Made by a program: the position numbers and the translations under genes. 64,000 nt of DNA from Minisyncoccota bacterium (GTDB lineage Bacteria; Patescibacteriota; Minisyncoccia; UBA6257; 2-01-FULL-56-20): positions 1,757-65,756 of the forward strand of contig DATAXS010000006.1 in assembly GCA_036266715.1 (NCBI GenBank), in the 5' to 3' direction. Positions 3,773 to 43,067 of the stretch are shown here, in pieces. The notes beneath the pieces were generated by a model. The model made no database searches and had not been told where the DNA came from. It saw only the letters and a program-made list of their open reading frames with translations. Each line of letters begins with the position of its first letter. Within the stretch, counting starts at the first letter, position 1.

Positions 3773-4975
3773 ATGCCACGGATTCGTAAGGAAACCAAGC
3801 AAAAGAAGTCCAAGGGACGAACAAAAAAAAGTCTTGCTTCCGTACGCACGCGCGCCAAAAGAGCAGTTGGTTCCCGCCGTGATGCCATCGTTAAAGCGCT
3901 CCGTGCCGCCGCCCGCACAGAGAAGGCCAAGCGGCCGCACCAGCTTGACCGGCACGAAGGCAATCCGATCATGGAGCCGCGCGAGACAAATTTTTGGGAA
4001 ATGAAGGCGACCTTCAATCCGGGCGCCATCTATGCCGACAGGCGCGTACATCTTTTATACCGCGCCATCGGCGGCGATGATATTTCCGTGCTCGGGTACG
4101 CGGCAAGCGATGACGGTTTCACTATTACCGAACGGTTGGACGATCCGGCATTCATTCCCGATGCCACAAAGAAGCCCGACCCAAACGCACCGGTGCAAAC
4201 ATTGCCCGCGTATTGTTCCGGTGGGGGATGGAACGGCGGCTGCGAAGATCCGCGCCTTACGTTGCTCGATGACCAGGTGTATCTGATGTACACCGCGTTT
4301 GATGGGTGGGGTTCCATACGCATCGCGCTCACCTCAATAGACGTGAAGGACTTTTTGAACAAACGCTGGTTTTGGAAAAAGCCGGCGCTTATTTCTCCGC
4401 CCGGCGAGATCCATAAGAACTGGATGATGTTCCCGGAGAAAATAAACGGGAAATATGCGATCCTAAACAGCATTTCGCCGCAAATATCCGTAGCATATTT
4501 TGATTACCTTGATGAGCTGGAGCGGGGCGAAAAGGTGATCCCGAGCCGCTACGACCGCATTTCACGCACCGGGAGTTGGGACAGCTGGATTCGCGGCGCG
4601 GGACCGCCGCCCATCAGGACAAAACTCGGTTGGCTGCTCTTCTATCACGCCATGGATATCCGCGATCCCGATCGCTACAAACTTGGCGCCATGATTCTGG
4701 ATGCGAACGACCCCACAAAAATACTTTACCGCTCGCGCGTGCCGGTGCTTGAGCCAGATATGTATTATGAAAATAACGGTTTCAAATCGGGCGTGGTTTA
4801 TTCCTGCGGCGCGATCGTAAAAGATGGCGAGCTCTATGTGTATTATGGCGGTGCGGATGCGGTGGTTTGCGTGGCAATGGCCAATTTGGATATGTTTTTG
4901 GAAGAACTTGCGAAATACGGCACCCCGCAGCTCACCGTGGAAAGGAAGCCCCCTACGCGCGCCACGCGGCGGTAG
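3773..4975 (+). CDS. GH130-family glycosidase/phosphorylase (DUF377-like) with Lys-rich N-terminal extension
   Basis: NPGAIY...LLYRA, GGCEDPRLT and C-terminal YVYYGGADAVVCVA are typical of the GH130 beta-propeller. The true start may be the internal Met near 3971. Confidence 0.65.
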   Translation: MPRIRKETKQKKSKGRTKKSLASVRTRAKRAVGSRRDAIVKALRAAARTEKAKRPHQLDRHEGNPIMEPRETNFWEMKATFNPGAIYADRRVHLLYRAIGGDDISVLGYAASDDGFTITERLDDPAFIPDATKKPDPNAPVQTLPAYCSGGGWNGGCEDPRLTLLDDQVYLMYTAFDGWGSIRIALTSIDVKDFLNKRWFWKKPALISPPGEIHKNWMMFPEKINGKYAILNSISPQISVAYFDYLDELERGEKVIPSRYDRISRTGSWDSWIRGAGPPPIRTKLGWLLFYHAMDIRDPDRYKLGAMILDANDPTKILYRSRVPVLEPDMYYENNGFKSGVVYSCGAIVKDGELYVYYGGADAVVCVAMANLDMFLEELAKYGTPQLTVERKPPTRATRR

Positions 4976-10599: not shown

Positions 10600-12705
10600 T
10601 TGGCGAAAAAGACGCTCGCGTGGCACGTAAGCACCCAAAAGGACATGAAAAAACTCAAACAAATAAGCCTTTTCCTTCTTGTGCTTGCGGCGTATATCAT
10701 TTCCGGCAAACTAGGGCTCCAACTTGCGTCCATTCAGGCAAATGCCACGCCCATTTGGGCGCCCGCCGGTATTGCAACGGCGGCGCTCCTCATTCTGGGC
10801 TACCGTTTTTGGCCGGCAATATTTCTTGGTGCTTTTATTACGAATATTACGACGGGAGGAACGCCCGTGGCTGCAACGCTTGCAATCGCCATCGGCAACA
10901 CGCTGGAAGCGCTCCTTGCCGCCTACCTCGTGAACCGTTTTGCGAACGGCGTGCGTGCGCTCGATAAGACGGACAACGTGTTCCGCTTTGCGTTCCTCGC
11001 GGGCGGCGTGAGTCCCATGGTAAGCGCGACGATCGGGGTTACGAGCCTCTTCCTTGCGGGATCCCTGCATGCGGCGGACTTTACTTCCGTTTGGAGCACG
11101 TGGTGGCTGGGCGACGTGGGAGGCATGCTCATCATTGCGCCGTTCCTGCTCGCGTGGTTCACCGACCATGCGATCGAGTGGAGCACAAGAAAGATCCTTG
11201 AGGTCGTGGCGCTCGCCGCGCTGCTTTTTGCGTTTGCCCTTTTTGCGTTCAAAGGCACCCCGGGATTCATTTTTGTGTTCTACCTTTTTATTCCGGTTTT
11301 CGTATGGGTCGCGTTCCGGTTCAGCCAGCGGGAGACGGCGACCGTGCTCTTCGCCATGACCGAGATCACGCTTTATGAAACACTGCACGGCGAGGGGCCG
11401 TTCATCAATGCCGCGACGACGCTGAATGCGGCCCTGCTTCTTTTCCAGGCGGCGATGGTCACGATCGCTATCACCATGTTTGCGCTTTCCGCAGCGTCCG
11501 CCGAGGAACGGAAGCATGCGGTGGCGACCATACGGGCGAACGAACGGATGGAACAGGAAAAGGCGGTTGACGCGGCCATTATTGCGAGCGTGGGTGACGG
11601 GCTTATTGTGACCGACCAAGAAGGCAATATTGCGCTTGTAAATCCTCAAGCGGAAAAGTTTCTCGGCTGGCGGGCGGAGGAGATTGTCGGGAAAAAATAT
11701 TATGACGTGATCCAGGTGCAAAACGAGGATGGCGTGACCGTGGCGCTCTCCGAACGGCCGCTCGTGAAGACCGTCGCCGAACGGAAAAGGATTGCGAGTG
11801 GGCCGATGTTTGCCACGCGCTACTACGTGCGCAAGGACGGGGGCCGTTTCCCGGTTTCCTTCACCAAAACGCCCGTAATGCTCGGCGGCGAGGTCATCGG
11901 GACCATAGAAATTTTCCGCGACGCCACAAAGGGCGTGGAGATCGACCGCACAAAATCGGAGTTCGTATCGCTCGCGGCGCACCAGCTCCGCACGCCGCTT
12001 TCCATCATTGCCATGCACGCGGAGCTCCTCAAGAAGCAGGGCCAGCTTTTCGGCAACCACGACGAGGAGATGTGTGTGGATTATGCGACGGAGATCCACG
12101 ATGTTGCGATGCGCATGGCGGACCTCATCAACGACCTTCTGAACGTTTCCCGCATCGATACGCAGACGCTTGTCGTGACGCCGGGATCGGTCAATGTGCG
12201 GAGGCTTGTGGACGGTATCCTCCGGGAAATGGCGTTCAAGTTTTCCAGCCGGAATATTACCGTGCGCACGAACTATCCGGATCCCGCCCCGGAACTCGTG
12301 ACGGACCCACACCTTCTTGAGATCATAGTAGAGAATCTTTTGGGGAATGCGGTGAAATATACGCCTGAAGGGGGAAGGGTTTCCATTGTGGTGAGAGAAG
12401 AGGAGCTGGACATTGTGGTTACGATCACGGACACCGGCCACGGCATCCCGCATGCCCAGCACGGAGAAGTGTTCAAGAAATTTTTCCGTGCGGACAATGC
12501 GCGGCGGATGGCGAGCGAAGGCACCGGACTCGGCCTTTACATCGTGAAGTCGGTCGTGGAACGCCTGGGCGGTAGTATTTCCTTTGAGTCGCGCGAAGGC
12601 GAGGGGACGAGCTTTGTGGTGCATATTCCAAAGACGAGCGCGGAGGGACTGGGTATTCCGGAAGAAGACGATATTTCCACGCTCGCCGTGTCCTCTTCTT
12701 TATAA
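10600..12705 (+). CDS. sensor histidine kinase with MASE1 membrane domain, PAS domain, HisKA and HATPase
   Basis: N-terminal polytopic MASE1-like region (GKLGLQLA...IWAPAGIATAALL). PAS segment (VGDGLIVTDQEGNIALVN). H-box AAHQLRTPLS. N, G1 and G2 boxes (NAVKYT, DTGHGIP, GTGLGL). Confidence 0.8.
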   Translation: MAKKTLAWHVSTQKDMKKLKQISLFLLVLAAYIISGKLGLQLASIQANATPIWAPAGIATAALLILGYRFWPAIFLGAFITNITTGGTPVAATLAIAIGNTLEALLAAYLVNRFANGVRALDKTDNVFRFAFLAGGVSPMVSATIGVTSLFLAGSLHAADFTSVWSTWWLGDVGGMLIIAPFLLAWFTDHAIEWSTRKILEVVALAALLFAFALFAFKGTPGFIFVFYLFIPVFVWVAFRFSQRETATVLFAMTEITLYETLHGEGPFINAATTLNAALLLFQAAMVTIAITMFALSAASAEERKHAVATIRANERMEQEKAVDAAIIASVGDGLIVTDQEGNIALVNPQAEKFLGWRAEEIVGKKYYDVIQVQNEDGVTVALSERPLVKTVAERKRIASGPMFATRYYVRKDGGRFPVSFTKTPVMLGGEVIGTIEIFRDATKGVEIDRTKSEFVSLAAHQLRTPLSIIAMHAELLKKQGQLFGNHDEEMCVDYATEIHDVAMRMADLINDLLNVSRIDTQTLVVTPGSVNVRRLVDGILREMAFKFSSRNITVRTNYPDPAPELVTDPHLLEIIVENLLGNAVKYTPEGGRVSIVVREEELDIVVTITDTGHGIPHAQHGEVFKKFFRADNARRMASEGTGLGLYIVKSVVERLGGSISFESREGEGTSFVVHIPKTSAEGLGIPEEDDISTLAVSSSL

Positions 12706-15647: not shown

Positions 15648-17702
15648 ATGAAAAAAATAATTGTGTTCGTGTGCTTTGTGTTCGCAGGTTTTTTTGTTCA
15701 CCAAAATGTCATGAACACGGCGCACGCCGATTCGCCCTTCACTATGGCGGTGCAGGGGTCGGCGACTGCGGCCGTTGGCCAGGGGGACGGCCTTTCCGCA
15801 TCCGTCACGGACAGCGGCAATTCCGTTTCGAATGTGATCGTAGACGTGGAAGTGCACGACGCATCCGGCGCCAGGGTGTTCCAGCAGTTCTTCTCCGGCC
15901 AGAATTTCGGTTCGGGCCAAACGCAGAATTACAGCGCGGGATGGACGCCGACCGCGAACGGCACGTATACCGTGGATGCGGGCGTTTTTAATGCCGATTG
16001 GTCGCAGCTTCTTTCCTGGGAACAGGCCGGGCTTACGGTAACGGTGGGCGGCGCGGCGGCGCCGAGCTTCACCGCGACGGCAAGTGCGAGCCCCGCCGCG
16101 CCGACCACAGGCCAGCCCGTCAACGTGTCGTTCAACGTGCAGGACGGCAACGCGCCGGCGAACGGCATGATCGTGGATTTTGAGGTCTATGGTCCCTCCG
16201 GCGCAAAGGCATACCAGCAGTTCTTTTCCGGCCAAAACTTTTCCGCGGGTCAAACGAATTCCTACACGGCGTCGTGGACGCCGAGCGCCACGGGGAACTA
16301 TACCGTGGACGTAGGGGTCTTCACGGCAAATTGGGCAGAGACCGTTTCCTGGACAAATGTTTTGGGAACGACGGTCGCGCAATCAAATCCGCAGTTTAAT
16401 GTGGCGGCAAACGTGAACCCCACCGCTCCCACGCCCGGGCAGGCAGTGTCGCTCGGCGCGAACGTCACGGATGCCGGCGGCCCGGTGTCAAACGTCATCA
16501 CCGACCTTGAGGTGCATGATGCTTCCGGCAACAAAGTGTTCCAGCAATTCTTTACCGGCCAGAACTTTTCTGCGGGCGGGACCCAGTCCTACAACGTGAA
16601 TTGGACGCCATCCTCGGCAAGCACCTACACGTTTGACGTCGGCATATTCAATGCCGATTGGTCCCAACTTCTTTCCTGGAATGCGGCGGAAAATATCAAT
16701 GTGGCAACGGCCGCGACGGAAGATCCACCCGCGCCAACCCCAACCCCGACCCCGACCCCGGCACCAACACCGACTCCCACTCCCACGCCGGTGGCCACTC
16801 CTGTCGCGAATTCGGTGTTGAGTGCGACGGTAGCGCTTTTGAACAGCCCCTTTTACGTTGACCCGGATTCGCAAGCAGCGGTTTCCGCAAGTTCGCTTAC
16901 CTCAAGCGATCCAACGGACGCGGCATTGATCAATATTATTGCCACTGAGCCGACGGGTGTCTGGTTCGGCGGCTGGAACACGGACGTGTACCAGGATGTG
17001 AACGCGCTTGTGAGCGCCGCGCAGAATACGGGGAAGACCCCGGTGCTCGTGGCGTACAACATTCCCAATCGTGACTGCGGCGGGTATTCCGCCGGCGGCG
17101 CGCAAACTCCGGCCGCATACCAATCGTGGATACGATCTTTTGCGAGCGGCATTGGCAACCGGAGCGCGATCGTGATCCTTGAGCCGGACGGGCTCGCCAA
17201 CATGGATTGCCTTTCGGCAGCGGACCAGGTGACGCGGGAAGGACTTTTGAACTACGCGGTGGGCATCTTGAAATCGCTTGGCAATACCAAAGTCTATCTT
17301 GATGCGGGCAATCCGAACTGGATATCCGCGGGGGACATGGCTCCGCGGCTTGAGGCCGCCGGCATCGCGCAGGCGGATGGATTTTCGCTCAACGTCTCCA
17401 ACTTCTATACGACGTCGGCAAACGTGGCATTCGGCGAATCGCTCTCGGCGCTCGTAGGCGGCAAGCACTTTGTGGTGGACACAAGCCGCAACGGCAACGG
17501 TTCCTTGAACGGCGAGTGGTGCAACCCAGCGGGCATGGCGCTCGGCAACACGCCGACGTTCAAGACGGGAAATCCGTTAGTAGATGCATATCTTTGGATC
17601 AAGCCGCCCGGCGAATCGGATGGGACGTGCAACGGCGGACCTTCGGCGGGGACATGGTGGTCGCAGTATGCGGTAGGTTTGGCGCAAGCAGCGGGTTACT
17701 GA
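15648..17702 (+). CDS. secreted glycoside hydrolase family 6 (cellulase) with three N-terminal ~105-aa repeat domains and a PT-rich linker
   Basis: Signal peptide. Three repeats of V(S/T)D.G..VSNVI.D.EVHDASG..VFQQFF(S/T)GQNF..GQT..Y...WTP...G.YTVD.GVF.A(D/N)W (aa ~30-365). PT linker PPAPTPTPTPTPAPTPTPTPTP (nt ~16723-16790). C-terminal GH6 motifs YNIPNRDCGG, ILEPDGLANM and WIKPPGESDG. Confidence 0.8.
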   Translation: MKKIIVFVCFVFAGFFVHQNVMNTAHADSPFTMAVQGSATAAVGQGDGLSASVTDSGNSVSNVIVDVEVHDASGARVFQQFFSGQNFGSGQTQNYSAGWTPTANGTYTVDAGVFNADWSQLLSWEQAGLTVTVGGAAAPSFTATASASPAAPTTGQPVNVSFNVQDGNAPANGMIVDFEVYGPSGAKAYQQFFSGQNFSAGQTNSYTASWTPSATGNYTVDVGVFTANWAETVSWTNVLGTTVAQSNPQFNVAANVNPTAPTPGQAVSLGANVTDAGGPVSNVITDLEVHDASGNKVFQQFFTGQNFSAGGTQSYNVNWTPSSASTYTFDVGIFNADWSQLLSWNAAENINVATAATEDPPAPTPTPTPTPAPTPTPTPTPVATPVANSVLSATVALLNSPFYVDPDSQAAVSASSLTSSDPTDAALINIIATEPTGVWFGGWNTDVYQDVNALVSAAQNTGKTPVLVAYNIPNRDCGGYSAGGAQTPAAYQSWIRSFASGIGNRSAIVILEPDGLANMDCLSAADQVTREGLLNYAVGILKSLGNTKVYLDAGNPNWISAGDMAPRLEAAGIAQADGFSLNVSNFYTTSANVAFGESLSALVGGKHFVVDTSRNGNGSLNGEWCNPAGMALGNTPTFKTGNPLVDAYLWIKPPGESDGTCNGGPSAGTWWSQYAVGLAQAAGY

Positions 17703-19312
17703 TAATTTACTACGGATAAAGTGGCAGACGACGTGGACGACGCCTGTTCCGTGCTCGGTGTGCCCGCCGCGCCCGCACCGCCCGAAACGGCATACGAATT
17801 TACGATTGTCTGCATATCCGCGAGCGTGGTGTTGTTGTAGTTCAGCTGGTAGACGTAGAGCGTGAGGTCCGGGGAAAAGTTCTGTTCGTAGAGGCGCTGG
17901 TAATGTGTTTCAAAATACATTTGAAGATCGCTTTCATACCCCTGGTTGTAGCTCAAGATGAGATAGAGCTTTTGGTAGTTCCCGAATGTCCCCACGTTCG
18001 CCGCGAGCGTGCTTGTGGTGAACGCGGGGATGGGACCGGACACGAGCTGGTCCCAGACGGGGAGCGTGGTCAGCGTGGCGCTCCCGGTGTAGTAGTACTC
18101 AAAGGGATAGACGGTGAATGGCGCGGAAACGGCCACGATGTCCCGGCTTGATGCGTTCGCCGAAACATAGGAGGCCACTTGGGAATAATCTTCTTTGACC
18201 GACGCCTGCGGGTTCACCGTTTGTATCTGGAGCATGACGACCATAAACCCTGCGAGCGCGAACTTCCCGACCGTGGCTGCGGATTGCGGATAGAACGAGA
18301 AGAACCAGGCGACCGCGAGACAGAACGATGGGAAGAAACCGATGAAATAGCGCGAAAGATAGAACGGCTCAATGACGTGGCTTAATGCCGCTGCGAGGAC
18401 GATGGGTACGATTGCTGCCGCAGTAAAGTAAACGCCTTCCGGCGACACCTTCTGGTTTTTTTGGAGCGCAAAAAAAAGCAGTAGCGTAAGGAGTGGCCAT
18501 GCGGAAAGAATAGCAGTGTTCAAGGGGTCTGCCTGGAAACCAAAGAGGAAGTTGGAGAATGTATTAAAGACATCAACCGTGGAAGGCGCCGTGAGCTTTG
18601 GCGTGGTGTTTGCGCCGAAGCCGCCCAGCGTGTGGACGTAGTAGAGCCACGGGACAAAGAGTGCCGCAAGAATGAGCGTGATCATCACAAAATTCCTCAA
18701 AGAGTGTTTGGGGAATATTTTGTGGTAGGCGATATAGAAAAGCCCGTCCACGCCGAGCATAAGAAGGAAGAAGTAATGGGTGTAGATCCCCAAAAGACAG
18801 GAAAAGAAATAACCGAACCAATATGCCTTCCGATGCTCCGGCTTTCCCTTAAAGAGAAGGATAAAAAATATTTGGCTTGCCACGGTGACGAGCGTGAGCA
18901 GGCTGTACATCCGGATAATGCTCCCGTACCAGTTGGTAAACGGGGAAATGGTAAAAAGGATGGTGGCAAAAATGGAGAGCGATTCATTGAACGCTATTTT
19001 TCCCAAGTAATACACGAGAGGAATGGTCACAAGGTAAAAAATGAGCGAGAGCAGGCGCGCGACCGTGACCGAGCTACCGAAGAGCATCAGCCAGTAGTGG
19101 AGCATGATGTGGTAGAGCGGCACGTGCACGTCCTGGCCCACCACGTAGAATATTCCCGTAAAGGTGTGCTCCGCCTGCCAGAGGGTTTGCGATTCATCCA
19201 GCCCGATGCTCTGCGGCATCATATAAAACATTGAGAAGAGGAAGGCAAAAACGACGAGCCCGATGAGAATGTAGGGTATGTAGACGCGTTTCATTGCGCG
19301 GCGCAAAGACAA
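17696..19312 (-). CDS. GT-C fold glycosyltransferase (PMT_2 / ArnT / GT39-like), polytopic membrane protein
   Basis: More than 10 TM helices. N-terminal loop with conserved acidic residues (GLDESQTLW). Layout typical of PF13231. Confidence 0.65.
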   Translation of the reverse strand: MSLRRAMKRVYIPYILIGLVVFAFLFSMFYMMPQSIGLDESQTLWQAEHTFTGIFYVVGQDVHVPLYHIMLHYWLMLFGSSVTVARLLSLIFYLVTIPLVYYLGKIAFNESLSIFATILFTISPFTNWYGSIIRMYSLLTLVTVASQIFFILLFKGKPEHRKAYWFGYFFSCLLGIYTHYFFLLMLGVDGLFYIAYHKIFPKHSLRNFVMITLILAALFVPWLYYVHTLGGFGANTTPKLTAPSTVDVFNTFSNFLFGFQADPLNTAILSAWPLLTLLLFFALQKNQKVSPEGVYFTAAAIVPIVLAAALSHVIEPFYLSRYFIGFFPSFCLAVAWFFSFYPQSAATVGKFALAGFMVVMLQIQTVNPQASVKEDYSQVASYVSANASSRDIVAVSAPFTVYPFEYYYTGSATLTTLPVWDQLVSGPIPAFTTSTLAANVGTFGNYQKLYLILSYNQGYESDLQMYFETHYQRLYEQNFSPDLTLYVYQLNYNNTTLADMQTIVNSYAVSGGAGAAGTPSTEQASSTSSATLSVVNYQ

Positions 19313-19315
19313 TTT

Positions 19316-20863
19316 TTATATTTCGACTTCTTGGTTTTGGGTGGCTTGGAGCAATGCGGAGACCGTCATCGGTTCCTGTGTTTGCGGCGCGGCGGCGCGC
19401 ACGTATTTGGCAAAGACGACCGCATTGATGAGGCCCCACGAAAAGTTCGCGACCCAGGCGGGCGTCACGACGCCATGCGCGTGCACGACGGAATATGCCG
19501 CGCCCGCGACGACGAGCGGGATGTACGCCATTTGAGCAACCGTCAAATAAAGGAAGTTGCCGCGCTGGGCCCGTTTGGGCGTAATGGAGAATCCGGATTT
19601 CCTGCGGAAGAAAGAGGCGACCGACGAGGCAATGTGGATTTGGAATCCCGCGACCGAGAACGCGAGCGCGCGGTAAGTGAAGGAAGAATTGGAGGAGCGC
19701 TGGATGGTGTAGAGCATGAGCAGTATGTAGGGAATGAAGACGGTCGCGAGCGCCATCGTGGAGGTTTGGATGGGGAACTGTCCGGTAAAGAAGAACATAA
19801 GAGGAATAATGGCATCAATGAGCACCACCCACCCTGAAAGGAAGTAGCTCACCGAGGAGAGATATTGCATGCGCTGTTTGAACGTGATCCCGCGCGTAAA
19901 GAGCAGGTTGTGCTGGAAGATGAGGTCCAGGCTGCCGCGCGCCCAGCGTGCCTGCTGTTTTGTGTAGGCAAGGAAATCTTCCGGTGCCAAGCCGCGGGCA
20001 AGCACCTTCGGCACGTAGAGCGACTTCCAGCCGTTCTTATGGAGGAAAAATCCGGTAATGAAATCCTCGGCGATGCTGCCCTCGTACATGCCGCCGACCT
20101 CCATGAGCGCCGTGCGACGCACTACCATGTTCGTGCCGCACATGGTGACCGCATTCAGGCGGTTTTTCCCTTTGCAGATGGGGCCAAAGAAGAGCGACTG
20201 CTGTTCCCACGCGCCACCCGCCACGAAGTTGGTTTCGCTGTTCTTGTAAAATTGCGGCGTTTGCACAAAGGCGAGTTGGGAATCCGCAAAATAGGGGACG
20301 GTCTCGCGGAGAAACTCCGGCTTGGGAATATGGTCCGAATCAAAGAATGCCACGAACGGGCTCTCGGTGACGGACAGGCCGTTATTGATGTTGCCGGCTT
20401 TCGCCCCGCGCGGCTTCCGGCGCGTAATGCAATTCACGCCGAGCTGGTCCGCAAGGCGCACCACGTCGGCCCAGTTCTCTTTTTTTGCCACATAGCCATC
20501 GTTCAAAATAAACACGTAAAAGTTGGGGTAATCCATGGCGAGCGCGCCGCGCACGGTTGCTTCTATCACGTCAATCGGCTCGCCCGCCACGGTGATAAAG
20601 ACATCCACGGGCGGCGTGAATTGCGGGTCTTTCGGCACATCGTGCTCCGTGTCCCAGATGGTCCAGATAAAGGTGATGGCTTGCCAGAGGTGGAAGACCT
20701 CGCCGAAAATAAGAAGCCAGAAAAGGACCAACTCTCCTTTTTGGAAGAAGAACGCGATCATAAAGAAATAAAAGAGCGCAAGCAGGATGTTCACCGCAAG
20801 GAGAAGTTTGGGAACCTGAGTATTTTTAAGAAATTGTTCGTCGTGCATTGGATGTTGTTGCAA
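19316..20863 (-). CDS. processive family-2 glycosyltransferase, cellulose-synthase-like (BcsA/CesA-like, no PilZ domain)
   Basis: D,D,D,QxxRW signature: FILNDG...FFDSDH...TKQQARWARG. TM helices flank the GT-A core. Confidence 0.75.
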   Translation of the reverse strand: MQQHPMHDEQFLKNTQVPKLLLAVNILLALFYFFMIAFFFQKGELVLFWLLIFGEVFHLWQAITFIWTIWDTEHDVPKDPQFTPPVDVFITVAGEPIDVIEATVRGALAMDYPNFYVFILNDGYVAKKENWADVVRLADQLGVNCITRRKPRGAKAGNINNGLSVTESPFVAFFDSDHIPKPEFLRETVPYFADSQLAFVQTPQFYKNSETNFVAGGAWEQQSLFFGPICKGKNRLNAVTMCGTNMVVRRTALMEVGGMYEGSIAEDFITGFFLHKNGWKSLYVPKVLARGLAPEDFLAYTKQQARWARGSLDLIFQHNLLFTRGITFKQRMQYLSSVSYFLSGWVVLIDAIIPLMFFFTGQFPIQTSTMALATVFIPYILLMLYTIQRSSNSSFTYRALAFSVAGFQIHIASSVASFFRRKSGFSITPKRAQRGNFLYLTVAQMAYIPLVVAGAAYSVVHAHGVVTPAWVANFSWGLINAVVFAKYVRAAAPQTQEPMTVSALLQATQNQEVEI

Positions 20864-20865
20864 AG

Positions 20866-22263
20866 TTATTGTGAGAAGTTGAGGGCAAAAAGGTTGGGGA
20901 GGTCGTTATTGTAGAGCGCCATCCCGAACCATGCGATATTGGAGTCGTAGTAGCTGAGTGGCAGGCGCCACGTCTGCGTGTCGGGGTCATAAAGCGATTG
21001 GAGCTTTTCCGTATAGACCGTGTTGCTGTCTGCGGGATCTGCGACCATGAAGTATCCTATTGTGCCGCCATATACGGCAGGATCCTGGTAGAGCGGCGGG
21101 ACGGGAGTCCCGTCGTGCGCATAGACCGCGTCAAGAATCTGTTGTTTGTCCCATTGATCGGTAAGAAAGTGGAGTTTTTGGAGCACGGCTTCCGCGCGCG
21201 GGTCCTTGTTCCATTCCCAGTCAAGCGCGATGCGGAAGGGAACGCGGAGCGCATCGTAGCCGAAGTTCGTGTCTTCGCCGGAACTGGCTGCGGGAGCGGA
21301 GAGGCTGCCGGTAGTCGTGTCCATGACGACCCAGTCCGGCGGCAGGTCCGCGCTCGTCGCGCTTGTTGAAGCGTCGAGCGGAAGCGCAATACTGTTATCC
21401 AATACTTGGTATGAAGTGTTGATGAGACCGTTCCAGTCATCCGAAGGATCCACTTGGGCGAAGATGCGGTAGGCGTACGGGGCGAAGTACGAAGGGTCAA
21501 TGGGCTGCATTTCCTGCGTCTTTTCGGCGCTCGTCAGATTGTTGGGCGCGAGGTATGGTTCATTGTTTGCAATAAACACCTCGTTCGCCCAGATGCTCTT
21601 GACGATGGGGATCGCGGCCTCAAGGTACGCGGGGTTTTGCCAGCGCGCATAGGCGAAGATGAGCGAGAGGGCAATGTCCGTGTCGGCATCGCTCGCGCTG
21701 TTCTCCCCATTTTGTGCAACGATGACCCCGCCCGTTGTGTTACCGCCGCCGTTTCCCGCGGTAGTGGAAGGCCCCCAGAGCCACGAAAAGAGATTGTCGC
21801 TCCGTTGGAGGTTCGTTTGGGTCCACTTCCAGCTGGCATCGAAAGTCGGTTCGTCATCCATCCAGACCGCGCGGAGCATCGTGTATCCTTCGCCCTCGGA
21901 AGTACTGTCGTTGCTTCGCTCGGTGTCGAACGTGCGCCCGCTTGAGGGGTCGATATAAGATCCTTTGTAGTTTTCCCAGAGCGACGCGAGCATGGTCTTG
22001 TTCGAAAACACGGGTTCGGAAAGCGTTTGGGAATTCTTTTGGTAGTACCAGGTGCCGAGGAGCGTAACGCCGCCAAGCGCAAGGAAGATGACGCCAAATA
22101 TTTTTGCCAAAAAATGATTCCGCGCGGTACCAAGGATGAGAAGTAGTATTCCGGCCACGAGTACGGCGGCTGCGATCACGATGAGTGTGACGAACGTGCC
22201 GTGCGTGAGCGCGTTTGAAGGGTAGTAGTCGTAGTTAAAACTTGTGGAAACGGTGGTAGGCAT
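20866..22263 (-). CDS. glycoside hydrolase family 8 (BcsZ-like endoglucanase), membrane-anchored/secreted
   Basis: GH8 motifs TSEGEGYTML and ASDADTDIALSLIFA. Start trimmed to the internal Met to avoid a 110-nt overlap with the upstream gene. Confidence 0.7.
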   Translation of the reverse strand: MPTTVSTSFNYDYYPSNALTHGTFVTLIVIAAAVLVAGILLLILGTARNHFLAKIFGVIFLALGGVTLLGTWYYQKNSQTLSEPVFSNKTMLASLWENYKGSYIDPSSGRTFDTERSNDSTSEGEGYTMLRAVWMDDEPTFDASWKWTQTNLQRSDNLFSWLWGPSTTAGNGGGNTTGGVIVAQNGENSASDADTDIALSLIFAYARWQNPAYLEAAIPIVKSIWANEVFIANNEPYLAPNNLTSAEKTQEMQPIDPSYFAPYAYRIFAQVDPSDDWNGLINTSYQVLDNSIALPLDASTSATSADLPPDWVVMDTTTGSLSAPAASSGEDTNFGYDALRVPFRIALDWEWNKDPRAEAVLQKLHFLTDQWDKQQILDAVYAHDGTPVPPLYQDPAVYGGTIGYFMVADPADSNTVYTEKLQSLYDPDTQTWRLPLSYYDSNIAWFGMALYNNDLPNLFALNFSQ

Positions 22264-22303
22264 GTGTGTGGATTTGATACGCCGTGCGGCGGTGCGCGTT
22301 ACG

Positions 22304-24187
22304 TTAATAAAGTTTGTAAATAAATATGGTGGTGCCCACGCGATAGTCGGGTGGCGGTACGCCACCCATGCCCGGCGCGGGCGCGCGGAACGCGGTGAGC
22401 CAGGAATATTCATCGCTCGGGTCGCGCGCGTAGCCTGGCGCGGCCGGCTGGATGGCGTCCTGGAGATTGTTTATGGAAACTGCAAAATACTCTATGCCCT
22501 GCGACGCGGGATTGCCCATGGAAGAATTCCACGCCACGTATTTATTGCCCAAGTAATATGCCGGATTGGAACCGCCAAAGAAGTCCAACGCGAGCTGGTT
22601 CACTTGGGGGTTCTGGTTCATCCACGCTTGCAGGGCGAGCATGTCCTGGCCCCAATCGTAGTTGGAGTCTGTTACGTAGCGGTAGCCGTTTTCCGTCCCG
22701 TCACCGAGCTCGTTGAAGTACGAGAGGAAGTGCGGGTAAGCAAATGCTGTTTCGCCGAGCGACCATACGAGCATTGCTCCCACAAACGCGCCCTTCCACG
22801 AGAATTTGCTTCCATTGCCCGCCGCCGCGCCCGCTCGCGGCGCAAACCAGCGGCGGAGCGAGCTCGTCGCGAGAACATACATGAGCGGAATGGTGGGTAG
22901 GAGGTGCCGCACGCCGATGTTCAGCGTGCTTTCTATGCTGATGCCCCAATAGACCACCACAAAAACAAACATGGCGAATTGCGGGAATTCTTCCCGTATG
23001 TAGCTCCAGAACCGACTTTTCCGCTTCAGAATGACGGCGATGATCCTTGCAAGCGCAAGGATGGCCGCGAGCACGAGGAGGATGAGGACCGGCAATGTTT
23101 CCTTGAGCGCGTAGACGACGGGGAAGTAGAGGTGCGTGCCGTAGGAGTAGACCTTGCCGAGAAAGTAGCTTGTGTTGCCGCCCGTGAGGCGCTCAAAGTC
23201 CATGATCTCGCCAAGGAGATATTCCGCCATCGGACGCGTGAGGGGATTTCCCGCGGCCTTGATGTCAAGTTTCGCCAAGCACGTGACGGGATGGGTCGGC
23301 TCGCATGTGCCGGACGCAATCCCGCCGACGATGGATACTGTATCCGAAAGTTGGCGTGCGGGCGGATACCCGGCCGTAAAGATCGCATAGAGCGGATAGA
23401 CGATGACCGCATACCCGATGACGCCAATAAGCAGGAAGTAGCCGATATATTTTAAAAGCCGGCGGAAAAAGGAGCGCGCACGCTGTGCGGCGAACGGATC
23501 TTTTTTCCAGTCGCGTACCACGGTACCAAGAAAATCGAAAAGCAAAAGGATGGCAATCACCGGGATGAGGATGAGGTCGGAAAATTTCATGACCTGCGCG
23601 ATGCCGAGCCCGATCCCGGCGATAAACAAATTCTTTGCGCCGGGTTTTTGCATAAAGCGCACGAAACAGAATAATCCAAAGACCGCGCCGAATGCCGCAG
23701 CGATGTCCGTCGTCACGTAATGCCCGTTTGCGAGGATGACGGGCGAGAGGCCGACCATGGTCGCCGGCAGGAATGCCCATGTGTACCCAAAAAGCTTTGC
23801 GGCCCAAAAATAGGTGAGCAGGATGAGTCCGAGCGTGAGGAGCATGGGGAACAGCCGTGCCCAGCCGATGATGGCAGAGGCGCTGTTTCCCAAGCCGAAC
23901 AAAAATGCGCCGCCTACGCCCCATTCGCCGTTCACGGAGGTCGTCCAAAAGGAATTGGTATCCGGGAACTGCAGGTGCAGGAAGAGGAGCGGGACGGCGG
24001 CGAGCGCCTTAAGCAGAGGGGGATGTTCGGGATTCAGGCGGTAATCAAAACGGGTGATGTAGGCGTATCCGGCGGGAATATGCGCAAGTTCGTCCACCAC
24101 GGCGGACTCGCCCTGTGCACTTCCCCACATAAGCGCAAAACTCAGTGCACAAAGCACGAGAAGCGCGATTCGCGTTTTCTTCGTCAT
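22304..24187 (-). CDS. second GT-C fold glycosyltransferase (PMT_2/GT39-like) membrane protein
   Basis: VVDELAHIPAGYAY loop motif followed by many TM helices. Confidence 0.6.
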   Translation of the reverse strand: MTKKTRIALLVLCALSFALMWGSAQGESAVVDELAHIPAGYAYITRFDYRLNPEHPPLLKALAAVPLLFLHLQFPDTNSFWTTSVNGEWGVGGAFLFGLGNSASAIIGWARLFPMLLTLGLILLTYFWAAKLFGYTWAFLPATMVGLSPVILANGHYVTTDIAAAFGAVFGLFCFVRFMQKPGAKNLFIAGIGLGIAQVMKFSDLILIPVIAILLLFDFLGTVVRDWKKDPFAAQRARSFFRRLLKYIGYFLLIGVIGYAVIVYPLYAIFTAGYPPARQLSDTVSIVGGIASGTCEPTHPVTCLAKLDIKAAGNPLTRPMAEYLLGEIMDFERLTGGNTSYFLGKVYSYGTHLYFPVVYALKETLPVLILLVLAAILALARIIAVILKRKSRFWSYIREEFPQFAMFVFVVVYWGISIESTLNIGVRHLLPTIPLMYVLATSSLRRWFAPRAGAAAGNGSKFSWKGAFVGAMLVWSLGETAFAYPHFLSYFNELGDGTENGYRYVTDSNYDWGQDMLALQAWMNQNPQVNQLALDFFGGSNPAYYLGNKYVAWNSSMGNPASQGIEYFAVSINNLQDAIQPAAPGYARDPSDEYSWLTAFRAPAPGMGGVPPPDYRVGTTIFIYKLY

Positions 24188-25025: not shown

Positions 25026-26495
25026 ATGTTTATAAAAACAAAAAAGTGGAAAAAAGTGGTCTTGTCGCTCGTGCTCGGCGTGGCAGTGGTGGCGCTCGGT
25101 GCCTTTGCCGTCACGCGGGCGCAGATGGTCTCCTCGCTCTCCATCGCTTCGTCTTCGGCGAGCGACCAGAGTTCCCTGCTTTCGGTCACCTCGGTGGATG
25201 AGACCACGGATACCAGCTTGCTCACGGGGAATGCCACGAGTTCCGTTTCGGTGGGGCTCATAAGCCAGGACGGCGCGAACACGAACGGTGTTTCCGTCGC
25301 GGTCCAGCTTCTGCAGAACGGCAACGTGATCCAGCAGGCCGTCTACAGCAACCAGAACATTCTCCATGAGAGCCCGCAGACATATTGGCTTTCGTTCTCC
25401 GGCGTTCCGAACGGAACGTACACCGTTGCGGTCGTGGTCAATAACCCCGACGGCAGCGTGAACGCGTCCTTTAGCAATCTCGGCTCGGTCGTAGTGTCAG
25501 GGAGTACCGTTACCTCAACCTCCACGACTACTTCCACCGCCGCGAACGCGATCCAGATAATACCCACGAGCTTGCCCGACGCGACCGCTTCCAGTTCGTA
25601 TTCTGAGACGCTTACCGCCTCGACTACGATGAGCGGTCCCTTCACGTGGAGCCTTGCTTCCGGGACGTTGCCGGACGGCCTTTCGCTTGATACGTCGGCC
25701 ACGAGCAGCATGGCTACGCTCTCCGGCACGCCGACCACGGTAGGGTCATCCACGTTCGCGGTGAATGTGGCGAACGCCACGAGTTCCGCGTCGCAGACGT
25801 ACACGCTGAGCGTTGATGCGCCCGCGAGCGGCACGCCCACGCCAACCTATGCGGTTCAGATAGTTCCCGCGTCGCTTCCCGATGCGACGGTAAGCAGTTC
25901 GTATTCGCAAACGCTCACCGCCTCCACGTCGGCAAGCACGTCATTCGCGTGGAACGTCGCTTCCGGGACGTTGCCGTCCGGGCTTAGCCTCAATACGGGC
26001 ATAAGCAGCACGACGGCCACCATCACGGGCACGCCGACTGCAGCAGGATCGTCCACGTTTACCATCGGCGCGACCGACGGGACGAACTCGTCTACGGAGT
26101 CATATACCTTGAGCGTGGATCCGTCGTCAACGACAACCACCACCACGAGCACGGCGACATCTTCCGGCGACCTCGCCATAAATAGCGTCTATGAGCCCGC
26201 GACGAGCGTGAATGCAAGCGATACGCAAACCACCATCACCCCATATCTCGTTTCCACGAACGGTGCGAATGTGGGCAATGTGACGGTGCAAGTAGCGCTT
26301 CAGCAAAACGGTACGGTGATTGATTCGCAGTCCTATGGCAACCAGGATATTCTCCACGAATACCCGCAGGCCTATCCGCTCACCACGTCGTCCACGCTTC
26401 CCGCCGGGACCTACACGATCGCCGTCACGGTCTATAACGCCGATAATTCGGTGAATGCTTCCTTCCCAAACCTTGGGACTCTTACGGTGACATAG
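25026..26495 (+). CDS. secreted surface protein with two putative-Ig (He_PIG-like) domains
   Basis: Signal peptide. Twice GPFTWSLASGTLPDGLSLDT...TLSGTPTT. Ser/Thr-rich linkers. Confidence 0.55.
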   Translation: MFIKTKKWKKVVLSLVLGVAVVALGAFAVTRAQMVSSLSIASSSASDQSSLLSVTSVDETTDTSLLTGNATSSVSVGLISQDGANTNGVSVAVQLLQNGNVIQQAVYSNQNILHESPQTYWLSFSGVPNGTYTVAVVVNNPDGSVNASFSNLGSVVVSGSTVTSTSTTTSTAANAIQIIPTSLPDATASSSYSETLTASTTMSGPFTWSLASGTLPDGLSLDTSATSSMATLSGTPTTVGSSTFAVNVANATSSASQTYTLSVDAPASGTPTPTYAVQIVPASLPDATVSSSYSQTLTASTSASTSFAWNVASGTLPSGLSLNTGISSTTATITGTPTAAGSSTFTIGATDGTNSSTESYTLSVDPSSTTTTTTSTATSSGDLAINSVYEPATSVNASDTQTTITPYLVSTNGANVGNVTVQVALQQNGTVIDSQSYGNQDILHEYPQAYPLTTSSTLPAGTYTIAVTVYNADNSVNASFPNLGTLTVT

Positions 26496-34947: not shown

Positions 34948-36708
34948 ATGTCGAATGCGCCTCAAGGAGGGTCTGCACCGTCCGCTTTTCGGAAAAAATC
35001 AATAATCATTGGGATTTTCTTCGTGACCATGTCGGGAGTGCTTATGGCGCTCGCCGTGCCATCGCCCGCGTTTGCATCCGTCGCGAACTGGCAAAAAGGA
35101 GCGAATATTTTACCCGCGAACAACACGGATTTTTCGAGCGCGTCCTTTGAGCAGTCATTGCGCGACCTTGCATCGACGGGCGCCAATTATGTGACACTCG
35201 ACATCCCGCTTTACCAAAGCAACATTAATTCGACCGATGTGGGAACGGGCTGGGACACGCCGACGGACCAATCCCTTATCGCCGGCATCCAGTATGCGCA
35301 TTCCATCGGCCTGCACGTGATGCTGAAGCTTATGGTCAGCTCAAATGACGGGCAATGGAGCGCCTACATCAATCCTTCCGATCGCACCACGTGGTTTGCA
35401 AACTACGATGCGCTCGTGCTTCATTATGCGCAGCTCGGCCAGGCGAATGGCGTGGAGGAGCTTTGCATTGGCACCGAGCTCATTAGCATGTCGAGCGCGT
35501 CGGTAAATCCGAGCAACACGGGGAATTGGGAATCACTTATCGGCCAGGTCCGCAAAGTGTTTTCCGGCGCGCTTACTTATGATTCAAATTGGGGCGGTCC
35601 TGGTTTTACGCAGGAAGAAACGCAGATCCAATTTTGGTCGGCGCTCGACTTTATCGGGATCTCCGGCTATTTCAACCTGAGCGGCGACGGGTCCGTTTCC
35701 GCGCTCATGTCGAGCTGGGACTCGTGGAACCAAAGTTTGATCGCGCCCCTGTCCGCGCAGTGGGGGAAGCCGATCCTTTTTACGGAACTGGGGTACCAGA
35801 GCATTTTTGACAGCTACACGGACCCGTGGAACTGGGGCGAAACGGGCAGCCCGAACGTTGCCCAGCAGGCAAACGACTACCAGGCATTCTTCCAATACTG
35901 GAACCAGTATTCTAATTTCGCGGGAGTGGACATTTGGAATTGGTCCAGCGATCCGAACGCGGGAGGCTCAAATGACAGCGGCTACACGCCGCAGAACAAG
36001 CCGGCACAATCCGTAATGGCCCAGTGGTTCGGCCAGTCGGCGCCCGCCGCGCCGCCCGGATTTTCGGCAACCGCATCCGTAACGCCGGGGACGCCTGTTG
36101 AGGGGCAGAATGCCGGGCTTTCCGTCAATGTTGCGAATTCCGGAGGCGCCGTTTCCGGGGCGAACGTGGACGTGGAAATCTATGATTCCGGCGGAACACA
36201 GGTATTCCAGCAGGTATTTTCGGGGCAGAACTTTGCAGGCGGCGGTTCAGGCACCTATCCCGTCGGATGGACCGCGAACGCGGCGGGGGCTTACACGGTA
36301 AAGGTCGGCGTATTCAGCGGCGATTGGTCGCAAGAGTACTACTGGGGGAACCAGGTGCTTGCGTTTTCGGTGACCGCGCCGAGCGGTGGAGGCGGTGGCA
36401 GCGGGAGTGGGAGCACAAGCACGATCCAGGTTTGGTGGCCGACCGATGGCGTGACGGTTACGGGAGTCCAGCCGTTCAAAGCGATGCTTGAGAACATGTC
36501 CGTGGACAATTACTCAATGTACTGGCAGGTTGATGGCGGTCAATTGAATGCAATGCCCTCGAATGAAACCGACTATCCGCACAAGGAAGCGTCCGTCGAT
36601 GTGTCGCCGTGGAACTGGCGGGGGAACGGCCCATACGTCGTCACTTTCGTCGCAAAGGATGCAAACGGGCAAACGATCGGAGAGACCTCGGTCAGCATAT
36701 TTAACTGA
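34948..36708 (+). CDS. secreted TIM-barrel glycoside hydrolase (GH5/GH113/GH26-like) carrying one copy of the VFQQ(V/F)FSGQNF repeat domain
   Basis: Signal peptide. (beta/alpha)8-like N-terminal region (CIGTELISM, WNW aromatic cluster). aa ~370-475 are homologous to the triple repeat in the GH6 protein. Confidence 0.55.
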   Translation: MSNAPQGGSAPSAFRKKSIIIGIFFVTMSGVLMALAVPSPAFASVANWQKGANILPANNTDFSSASFEQSLRDLASTGANYVTLDIPLYQSNINSTDVGTGWDTPTDQSLIAGIQYAHSIGLHVMLKLMVSSNDGQWSAYINPSDRTTWFANYDALVLHYAQLGQANGVEELCIGTELISMSSASVNPSNTGNWESLIGQVRKVFSGALTYDSNWGGPGFTQEETQIQFWSALDFIGISGYFNLSGDGSVSALMSSWDSWNQSLIAPLSAQWGKPILFTELGYQSIFDSYTDPWNWGETGSPNVAQQANDYQAFFQYWNQYSNFAGVDIWNWSSDPNAGGSNDSGYTPQNKPAQSVMAQWFGQSAPAAPPGFSATASVTPGTPVEGQNAGLSVNVANSGGAVSGANVDVEIYDSGGTQVFQQVFSGQNFAGGGSGTYPVGWTANAAGAYTVKVGVFSGDWSQEYYWGNQVLAFSVTAPSGGGGGSGSGSTSTIQVWWPTDGVTVTGVQPFKAMLENMSVDNYSMYWQVDGGQLNAMPSNETDYPHKEASVDVSPWNWRGNGPYVVTFVAKDANGQTIGETSVSIFN

Positions 36709-42974: not shown

Positions 42975-42995
42975 GGCCAGGGTGTTTATCAAGTG

Positions 42996-43067
42996 CTCCG
43001 GCGCCAGGATTCGAACCTGGAACCTTATCCTTAACAGGGATTTGCTCTACCGTTGAGCTACGCCGGA
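42996..43067 (-). tRNA. tRNA-Asn (anticodon GUU)
   Basis: Reverse complement is UCCGGCG-UA-GCUC-AACGGUA-GAGC-A-AAUCC-CUGUUAA-GGAUA-AGGUU-CCAGG-UUCGAAU-CCUGG-CGCCGGA-G. Full cloverleaf with T-loop UUCGAAU and discriminator G. CCA is not encoded. Confidence 0.8.

Follow-up and report, generated by a model that had tools for sequence, protein, structure and literature searches.

A 64,000-nucleotide (nt) stretch of DNA from a Minisyncoccota bacterium (GenBank assembly GCA_036266715.1, contig DATAXS010000006.1), referred to here as the window, encodes two secreted glycoside hydrolases (GHs) that share a module of about 108 amino acids (aa). The first is a GH6 protein of 684 aa (open reading frame (ORF) 15648..17702, plus strand) in which a signal peptide, MKK...TAHA cleaved before DSPF, is followed by three tandem copies of the module (15732-16706), a Pro/Thr-rich (PT) linker, and the GH6 catalytic domain. 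This layout, together with the Pfam results, leaves no space for any further carbohydrate-binding module (CBM) in the protein. The second is a protein of 586 aa (ORF 34948..36708, plus strand) with a TIM barrel, a fourth copy of the module, a Gly/Ser linker, and a C-terminal domain of about 96 aa. The module is a CARDB-like, seven-stranded accessory domain with an immunoglobulin (Ig) fold of the E-set type; it is non-catalytic and is a mobile cassette among secreted enzymes.

The original prediction, made from the DNA letters, described a triple repeat in the GH6 protein and a single copy in the second hydrolase, and the four copies are indeed homologous. They are 44 to 60% identical (pairwise BLASTP E values of 2e-29 to 2e-40), and a MAFFT alignment of the four has 26 invariant columns, including QQ.F.GQNF, W-T, Y-T, G.F, and two Trp residues. 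A profile built from the four copies, run against the six-frame translation of the whole window, recovered exactly these four at E values of 1e-51 to 7e-55. The profile and BLASTP values rule out a chance or low-complexity origin of the repeat. The range proposed for the array, 15735 to 16740, starts within 3 nt of the first copy and ends about 34 nt inside the linker, and the copy placed at about 36060 to 36375 was located at 36040 to 36372 (Table 1). The second enzyme had been called GH5-like and is instead a GH113 enzyme (Pfam PF22612, E 1.2e-52); GH113 and GH5 belong to the same clan, GH-A, whose members share the TIM barrel. As the original prediction had it, the module is common to different GH families, and in the GH6 protein a PT linker sets it off from the catalytic domain; it is a real, independently folding unit.

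Table 1. Features of the two module-bearing enzymes and of neighboring genes, in window coordinates
Feature	Position	Strand	Evidence
Signal peptide of GH6 protein, aa 1-27, MKKIIVFVCFVFAGFFVHQNVMNTAHA, A-H-A cleavage motif	15648..15728	+	Translation; site from n/h/c-region pattern
Repeat 1, CARDB-like Ig-fold module, aa 29-134	15732..16049	+	Profile E 1.3e-51
Repeat 2, aa 135-244	16050..16379	+	Profile E 1.3e-51
Repeat 3, aa 245-353, copy used for modeling	16380..16706	+	Profile E 7e-55
Pro/Thr-rich linker of GH6 protein, aa 354-390 (~37 aa), TAATEDPPAPTPTPTPTPAPTPTPTPTPVATPV...	16707..16817	+	Translation
GH6 catalytic domain, aa 418-663, RDC/EPD/PGESDG motifs present	16899..17699	+	Pfam PF01341, E 1.6e-66
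PMT_2-type glycosyltransferase	17696-19312	-	
Cellulose-synthase-like glycosyltransferase family 2 (GT2)	19316-20863	-	
GH8	20866-22413	-	
Second PMT-like protein	22304-24187	-	
Divergent module copy, ORF 25026..26495, lacking VDxE and GVFxxDW...W	25203..25457	+	Profile E 4.3e-6; window scan 1.1e-4
Second divergent copy, ORF 25026..26495	26211..26459	+	Profile E 2.5e-3
GH113 catalytic domain, TIM barrel, second enzyme, aa 58-348	35119..35991	+	Pfam PF22612, E 1.2e-52
Copy 4 of module, aa 365-475 of GH113 protein	36040..36372	+	Profile E 2.4e-51
C-terminal ~96-aa domain of GH113 protein, after Gly/Ser linker	36418..36705	+	Motif pattern looks Ig-like

The repeat was described as unrecognized in the original prediction, yet three Pfam families match it above their thresholds. 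Copy 4 scored 29.7 bits against CARDB (PF07705, threshold 22.7 bits), copy 2 scored 30.0 bits against BatD (PF13584, threshold 24.1 bits), and the whole GH6 protein reached 47 bits against BsuPI (PF12690, threshold 22.9 bits), a sum over the three repeat stretches. Single repeats stayed below the BsuPI threshold (21.2, 19.5, and 19.0 bits); the highest of these values belongs to repeat 1 and is its best Pfam match. Copies 2 and 3 fell below the CARDB threshold as well (20.7 and 16.6 bits), and copy 1 had no CARDB match at E<=1 in the Pfam scan. Many relatives of the window copies do pass the CARDB threshold. Weaker matches were to Filamin, Big_7, YtkA, and MG2, and an NCBIfam FxLYD match lay just under the cutoff. 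Most of these Ig-like families sit in the Pfam E-set clan. BsuPI is an intracellular protease inhibitor and BatD is an aerotolerance-operon protein, and neither context fits the module.

In line with the original prediction, the repeat matches no CBM family that has a Pfam model or a solved structure. None of the CBM models in Pfam matched the repeats at E<=1, and none of the CBM chains in the PDB matched the family profiles at E<=10, except the carbohydrate-binding domain (CBD) of Wzt at E ~0.1. Thus, of the matches to known families that had been raised as a challenge to the idea of a novel module, those to Ig-like families were found in part and those to CBM families were not found in Pfam or the PDB. 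A search of the literature on GH113, CARDB, Saccharibacteria, and CBMs found no publications on this module. These results identify the module as a large, signature-bearing subfamily without a name in Pfam or NCBIfam rather than a new fold. Separately, an intramolecular isopeptide- or ester-bond adhesin domain (CnaB or Cpe0147 type) was considered and rejected on residue conservation, which does not provide the invariant pair of a Lys (or Thr) in the first strand and an Asn/Asp (or Gln) in the last strand.

An AlphaFold2 model of repeat 3, made with a 13-sequence alignment, had a mean predicted local distance difference test score (pLDDT) of 96.4 and a predicted template modeling score (pTM) of 0.86. 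It contains seven strands (residues 6-13, 23-31, 36-46, 52-63, 68-75, 82-90, and 97-107). The model is a beta-sandwich, which the original prediction had suggested looking for, and the predicted fold is an ordinary E-set/Ig-like one. The model superposes on the CARDB structure of Pyrococcus furiosus PF1109 as a seven-strand Ig-like sandwich. A model of the three-repeat array (pLDDT 92.8, pTM 0.59) has ordered junctions (pLDDT 82 to 88). The top Foldseek matches of the module were Wzt carbohydrate-binding domains (E 5e-5 to 9e-5, template modeling (TM) score 0.69 to 0.74), with CARDB close behind. None of the nearest solved structures, which are a GH66 N-terminal domain, a CARDB domain, and a Wzt carbohydrate-binding domain, exceeds 20% identity, and further neighbors are Ig domains of transglutaminase, GH2, and macroglobulin proteins. 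When a profile of 82 diverse family members was searched against all PDB sequences, the matches were remote only: a cell-surface (S-layer) protein (8c8k, E 1.7e-4), BsuPI (3isy, E 1.6e-3), and CARDB (E 0.01), followed by GH66 and filamin domains at about 0.05 to 0.1 and the Wzt CBD at about 0.1. The module is a discrete, independently folding, non-catalytic unit of carbohydrate-active enzymes, as judged from the pLDDT of 96 and from its presence on GH6, GH113, GH5, GH44, and GH26 enzymes.

Distantly related to CARDB-type Ig domains, which it also resembles in how it works, the module can be aligned with the CARDB structures (2kl6 and 3idu, both PF1109) residue by residue through the same "sWTPtxxGxYxv" (or "sWTPtxeGxYxi") segment of strands E and F. 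Copy 4 and several family members exceed the CARDB threshold and three of the four window copies do not, and identity between the module and CARDB structures is 12 to 20%. What sets the module apart is a family signature, VDxExY, Q, QxF, GxY, and GVFxxDWxxxYxW. In the F-G segment, where the CARDB structure reads "DEENTVVELNENNN", this family has "GVFssDWsxxYxWNnn"; the HMMER alignment to 2kl6 and 3idu likewise places "GvFssnWsqtlhWn" opposite "ATVDEENTVVELNENNN". The acidic, Asn-rich F-G pattern of CARDB (D..N.V.E.NE.NN, as in "vDeeNtVvElNEnNN") is therefore replaced in the module by "GVFxxDWSxxYxWNnn", and the module adds VDxExY and Q...QxF. The signature hairpin is also missing from two divergent copies of the module in a noncatalytic protein of the window (ORF 25026..26495).

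Conservation of the signature was computed on 256 copies that are less than 60% identical to one another, with positions numbered as in repeat 3. Values were 0.82 for D42, 0.86 for E44, 0.68 for Y46, 0.87 for Q55, 0.76 for Q61, 0.76 for W75, 0.93 for G81, 0.92 for Y83, 0.89 for G88, 0.84 for F90, 0.91 for W94, and 0.93 for W100. W94 is rarely replaced by Gly or Arg and W100 by Ser or Asn. None of these replacements is hydrophobic, unlike those expected at core positions, which hints that both Trp residues are exposed.

The module family is large. An exhaustive profile search of 1.84 billion representative sequences found 1387 clusters (at 50% identity) with E<=1e-3, of which 818 had E<=1e-10 and 154 had E<=1e-30, so that the census is a lower bound of at least 1387 clusters. 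A word-index protein search returned only short fragments (7 with the four-copy profile and 2 with the 82-sequence profile), and the census was taken from the exhaustive search. A genome scan made with the four-copy alignment found the closest loci in Candidatus Saccharibacteria, in Adlerbacteria, Parcubacteria, and Paceibacterota of the Candidate Phyla Radiation (CPR), and in Chloroflexota and Methylomirabilota. The window GH113 protein shares 48% identity along its entire length with a Saccharibacteria protein built from the same three parts, and the window GH6 protein is also 48% identical to a Saccharibacteria GH6. Judged by these best matches alone, the window probably derives from a CPR bacterium similar to Saccharibacteria. 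In a metagenome-assembled genome (MAG) labeled Gammaproteobacteria, adjacent GH6 and GH113 genes both encode the module. In an Opitutaceae MAG the partner of the module is GH26, and GH26- and GH79-like partners were seen at genome loci.

Architectures were counted in the best 149 proteins of the exhaustive search, a list ranked towards relatives of the query enzymes. With seed-based labeling, the partners in this list were GH113 in 23 proteins, GH44, GH5, and a sugar dehydrogenase in 9 each, GH6 in 3, and GH26 in 1. Among 62 family members scanned against Pfam, GH113 was found 17 times, GH5 6 times, GH44 4 times, and GH6 3 times; other partners were glucose/sorbosone dehydrogenase, PA14, PKD, BNR, and M23 domains. 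The occurrence on other carbohydrate-active enzymes that the original prediction envisaged is thus real, and the module is mostly attached to beta-1,4-glycan-active enzymes. At least 15 apparently complete enzymes consist only of a signal peptide, a catalytic domain, and an array at one end, every other region being shorter than 70 aa, which leaves no space for another CBM; P0009, P0019, P0020, P0023, P0024, P0033, and P0113 are examples of enzymes in which a terminal array is all there is besides catalysis. Among the 99 larger proteins, in which the repeats leave at least 250 aa of other sequence, the array is at the extreme C terminus in 31 and directly follows the signal peptide in 18.

Two groups of proteins within the best matches have unfamiliar partners. 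In 11 of the 149, arrays are fused to a region of about 420 aa (LPSHFAFGVSAGQGDTWMP...YYELLQS...) that occupies the position of the GH domain in other members. This region (P0125 aa 40-464, P0102, P0037, P0134, P0150, and others) had no Pfam match at E<=0.1, and it may represent an undescribed catalytic family. In proteins P0010 to P0016, P0022, and P0025, of about 1400 aa, an N-terminal region of about 650 aa that matches nothing in Pfam precedes five tandem module copies and a C-terminal domain of about 175 aa (FQPSFRVGDGANNWW.EVYTS...), which may resemble the cellulose-binding domains of expansins.

The likeliest of the functions considered, which we put forward tentatively, is that the module gives these enzymes multivalent, low-affinity binding to glycans, namely, beta-1,4-linked chains, through its polar and aromatic signature. 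The binding surface would be formed by D42, E44, and Y46 of strand C, Q55 and Q61 of strand C', and F90, W94, and W100 of the F-G hairpin, none of which is shared by ordinary CARDB domains. An avidity effect of tandem copies would increase affinity. The three copies of the GH6 enzyme would become a free N-terminal arm once the signal peptide is cleaved, tethered by the flexible PT linker to a catalytic domain of endoglucanase size. Such an arm could hold the enzyme on its polymer, which might be cellulose or mannan from the environment or else the glucan that the neighboring GT2/GH8 locus produces. The GH113 enzyme has a single copy directly behind the TIM barrel.

Several known systems bear on this proposal. 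Cellulases also bear established Ig-like CBMs and X-modules (such as CBM_X2 and 8wae, a CBM that binds porphyran); like the module, these are small beta-sandwiches joined to glycanases by linkers, sometimes in tandem. However, there is no sequence match between these and the module among Pfam or PDB CBMs, and binding by the module is a candidate function. The N-terminal Ig-like domain of GH66 dextranases and CITases (5axg, 3vmn, and 5x7g) gave a weak profile match (E 0.04 to 0.05, 10 to 16% identity). Like the module it is part of a glycoside hydrolase, but it is a single integral domain of one GH family and not a mobile tandem cassette. It is not known to have a ligand. The Wzt CBD is cytoplasmic, is fused to an ABC-transporter ATPase, and dimerizes by swapped C-terminal strands; sugar is bound on its flat sheet, in a pocket closed by a Trp directly behind the beta6-beta7 loop (PMC9445017). 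Sugar binding by this best Foldseek match speaks for a binding role of the module. The module, in contrast to this cytoplasmic, ATPase-fused domain, is secreted, occurs in tandem, and is carried by hydrolases (GH6 and GH113 in the window). W94 and W100 of the module lie in a hairpin equivalent to the beta6-beta7 region of Wzt. Alignments with a single member and with a six-member profile, aimed at comparing W100 with the ligand-lidding Trp362 of Wzt, gave only noise or CARDB matches.

A number of observations weigh against glycan binding. The resemblance to the Wzt C-terminal domain (PF14524; 2r5o, 6o14, and 8dky) is a sandwich likeness at the level of the fold, with 11 to 16% identity. In favor of binding, some relatives pass the Wzt_C threshold of 30.4 bits (for example, P0031, with 44.2 bits in one stretch), and 29 of the 62 scanned members match Wzt_C at E<1e-5 in the Pfam scan, but the window repeats are below significance (best 13.8 bits). 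The enrichment for glycanases is biased because proteins akin to the query enzymes rank highest among the matches, and some partners are not glycanases at all (M23 peptidase, metallophosphoesterase-like, BNR, and beta-propeller proteins). The GH6 orthologue of Saccharibacteria has a PA14 domain and one copy in place of the three copies, and that copy lies between PA14 and the linker. Whether the conserved aromatic and polar residues are exposed is judged from strand parity and substitution patterns only, and the parity of strand G is ambiguous, with an indel or bulge between copies. Conserved residues are found at both ends of the sandwich and could equally serve domain-domain contacts. Array geometry also points away from binding. 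Proteins among the best 149 have 2 to 6 copies, mostly abutting with linkers of 5 aa or less (junction gaps were below 5 aa in 144 of 246), which is more stalk-like than CBM-like, and arrays are internal in 50 of the 99 larger proteins.

These last features are what would be expected if the copies formed a passive stalk or spacer, a semirigid rod without a ligand, as is found for FN3, PKD, Big, and many CARDB repeats. We consider such a role only a little less likely than the tentative binding role, since the abutting and internal arrays and the nonglycanase partners suit it about equally well. It would account for the ordered junctions in the three-repeat model, for the position of the five copies in the 1400-aa proteins P0010 to P0016 (between the large N-terminal region and the C-terminal domain of about 175 aa), and for the divergent copies in a nonenzymatic surface protein of the window. 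It is also consistent with the nearest PDB sequence relatives, the S-layer protein 8c8k, BsuPI, and CARDB, and with the nonglycanase partners. However, the terminal array is the sole noncatalytic part of many enzymes, which favors binding over a pure spacer. A spacer would not be needed in the window GH6 enzyme, because there the array is a free end, and the distance to the catalytic domain is already provided by the flexible PT linker. In addition, the conservation of a polar and aromatic signature that ordinary CARDB domains lack exceeds what a generic spacer would need.

It is also conceivable, although unlikely, that the module retains enzymes at the cell by binding the envelope or exopolysaccharide of the producer or, for epibiotic Saccharibacteria, the surface of the host. 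Candidatus Saccharibacteria and other CPR bacteria are the source of the closest loci; the GH6 gene adjoins a PMT_2/GT2/GH8/PMT cluster, part of which (GH6-GH8-PMT_2) is syntenic in a second Saccharibacteria MAG; M23 peptidase and other nonglycanase partners occur; and the fold resembles that of the Wzt CBD, which recognizes a cell-surface polysaccharide. Yet the family is also common in MAGs of Chloroflexota, Actinobacteria-like bacteria, Verrucomicrobia, and Proteobacteria, which have very different envelopes, and neither an anchoring motif nor a wall-binding repeat of a known kind was seen. Surface retention would in any case be a special form of glycan binding in which the ligand alone differs. 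Least of all do we expect the module to be a helper of the catalytic domain, a role that Ig-like modules play in certain GH5_4 and GH9 cellulases, or a site for Ca2+ or another metal formed by D42, E44, and D/N47. GH113 proteins do carry one or two copies right behind the barrel with a connector of about 10 aa, the CARDB structure 3idu was solved with two bound metal ions, and acidic residues of the module are conserved. Nevertheless, about 37 aa of PT linker lie between the array and the GH6 domain, and the catalytic domains that carry the module represent at least seven unrelated folds, with copies at either end and in varying number. Such diversity makes a specific packing interface unlikely.

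If the module binds beta-glucan or mannan, it might constitute a new CBM family, a CARDB-derived Ig fold in which an F-G hairpin rich in Trp and a polar face of the strands would have evolved for binding beta-1,4-glucan or mannan. It could then be the main targeting device of GH113, GH6, GH5, GH44, and GH26 enzymes in Candidatus Saccharibacteria, other CPR bacteria, and Chloroflexota, which largely lack CBM2- and CBM3-type modules. As a whole this reading is a doubtful one. Were it correct, the new family would comprise more than 1000 sequence clusters, would help to annotate the glycanases of CPR bacteria and Chloroflexota, groups in which cellulose-binding modules of the classical kind are seldom seen, and would supply a compact, tandem-compatible binding tag for enzyme engineering. 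If the module is only a stalk, the analysis still provides a name and a signature for a building block that is common in secreted proteins and at present is scattered over several weak Pfam matches. In either case the advance is incremental for the annotation of carbohydrate-active enzymes and introduces no new principle; the module is a sensible candidate for characterization that would not surprise a specialist in these enzymes.

The surroundings of the GH6 gene offer a lead on its substrate. The gene adjoins an opposite-strand run of PMT_2, GT2, GH8, and PMT-like genes, and the GH6-GH8-PMT_2 adjacency is repeated in a second Saccharibacteria MAG (L001, 5556-8253). The run from 17696 to 24187 has the look of a CPR bacterial locus that makes and trims beta-glucan. 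Bacterial cellulose-synthesis operons include a GH8 endoglucanase (BcsZ). Because GH8 belongs to such operons and GT2 and GH8 are adjacent here, the GH6 enzyme and its array may act on the cell's own glucan rather than on plant cellulose, which we offer as a lead only. As listed, the ORF of GH8 shares 110 nt with the PMT-like ORF upstream of it, and the true GH8 start is probably downstream of the first in-frame ATG.

The two divergent copies of the module lie in a secreted, Ser/Thr-rich protein of 489 aa (ORF 25026..26495, plus strand) without a catalytic domain, in which they flank two He_PIG Ig domains (E 1.6e-13). A He_PIG-like segment resembling that of this protein is also present in an 877-aa, Ala/Ser/Thr-rich secreted protein with poly-Gly tracts that is encoded at 36792-39425 on the plus strand, behind the GH113 gene; its C terminus has a weak match to PG_binding_1 (E 3.7e-4, below threshold).

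The C-terminal domain of about 96 aa in the GH113 protein had no Pfam match at E<=1, and a PDB search gave only a weak match to an intimin-type Ig domain. The domain (IQVWWPTDG...YWQVDGG...FVAKDANG) is conserved in a Saccharibacteria orthologue (L002, about 4100-4402), and many GH113 relatives have a region of about this size behind the repeats. Elsewhere in the window, a sensor kinase with MASE1, PAS, HisKA, and HATPase domains is encoded upstream of the locus (10600-12705, plus strand), and a tRNA-Asn gene at 42995-43067 on the minus strand is the only RNA gene detected in the 64 kb.

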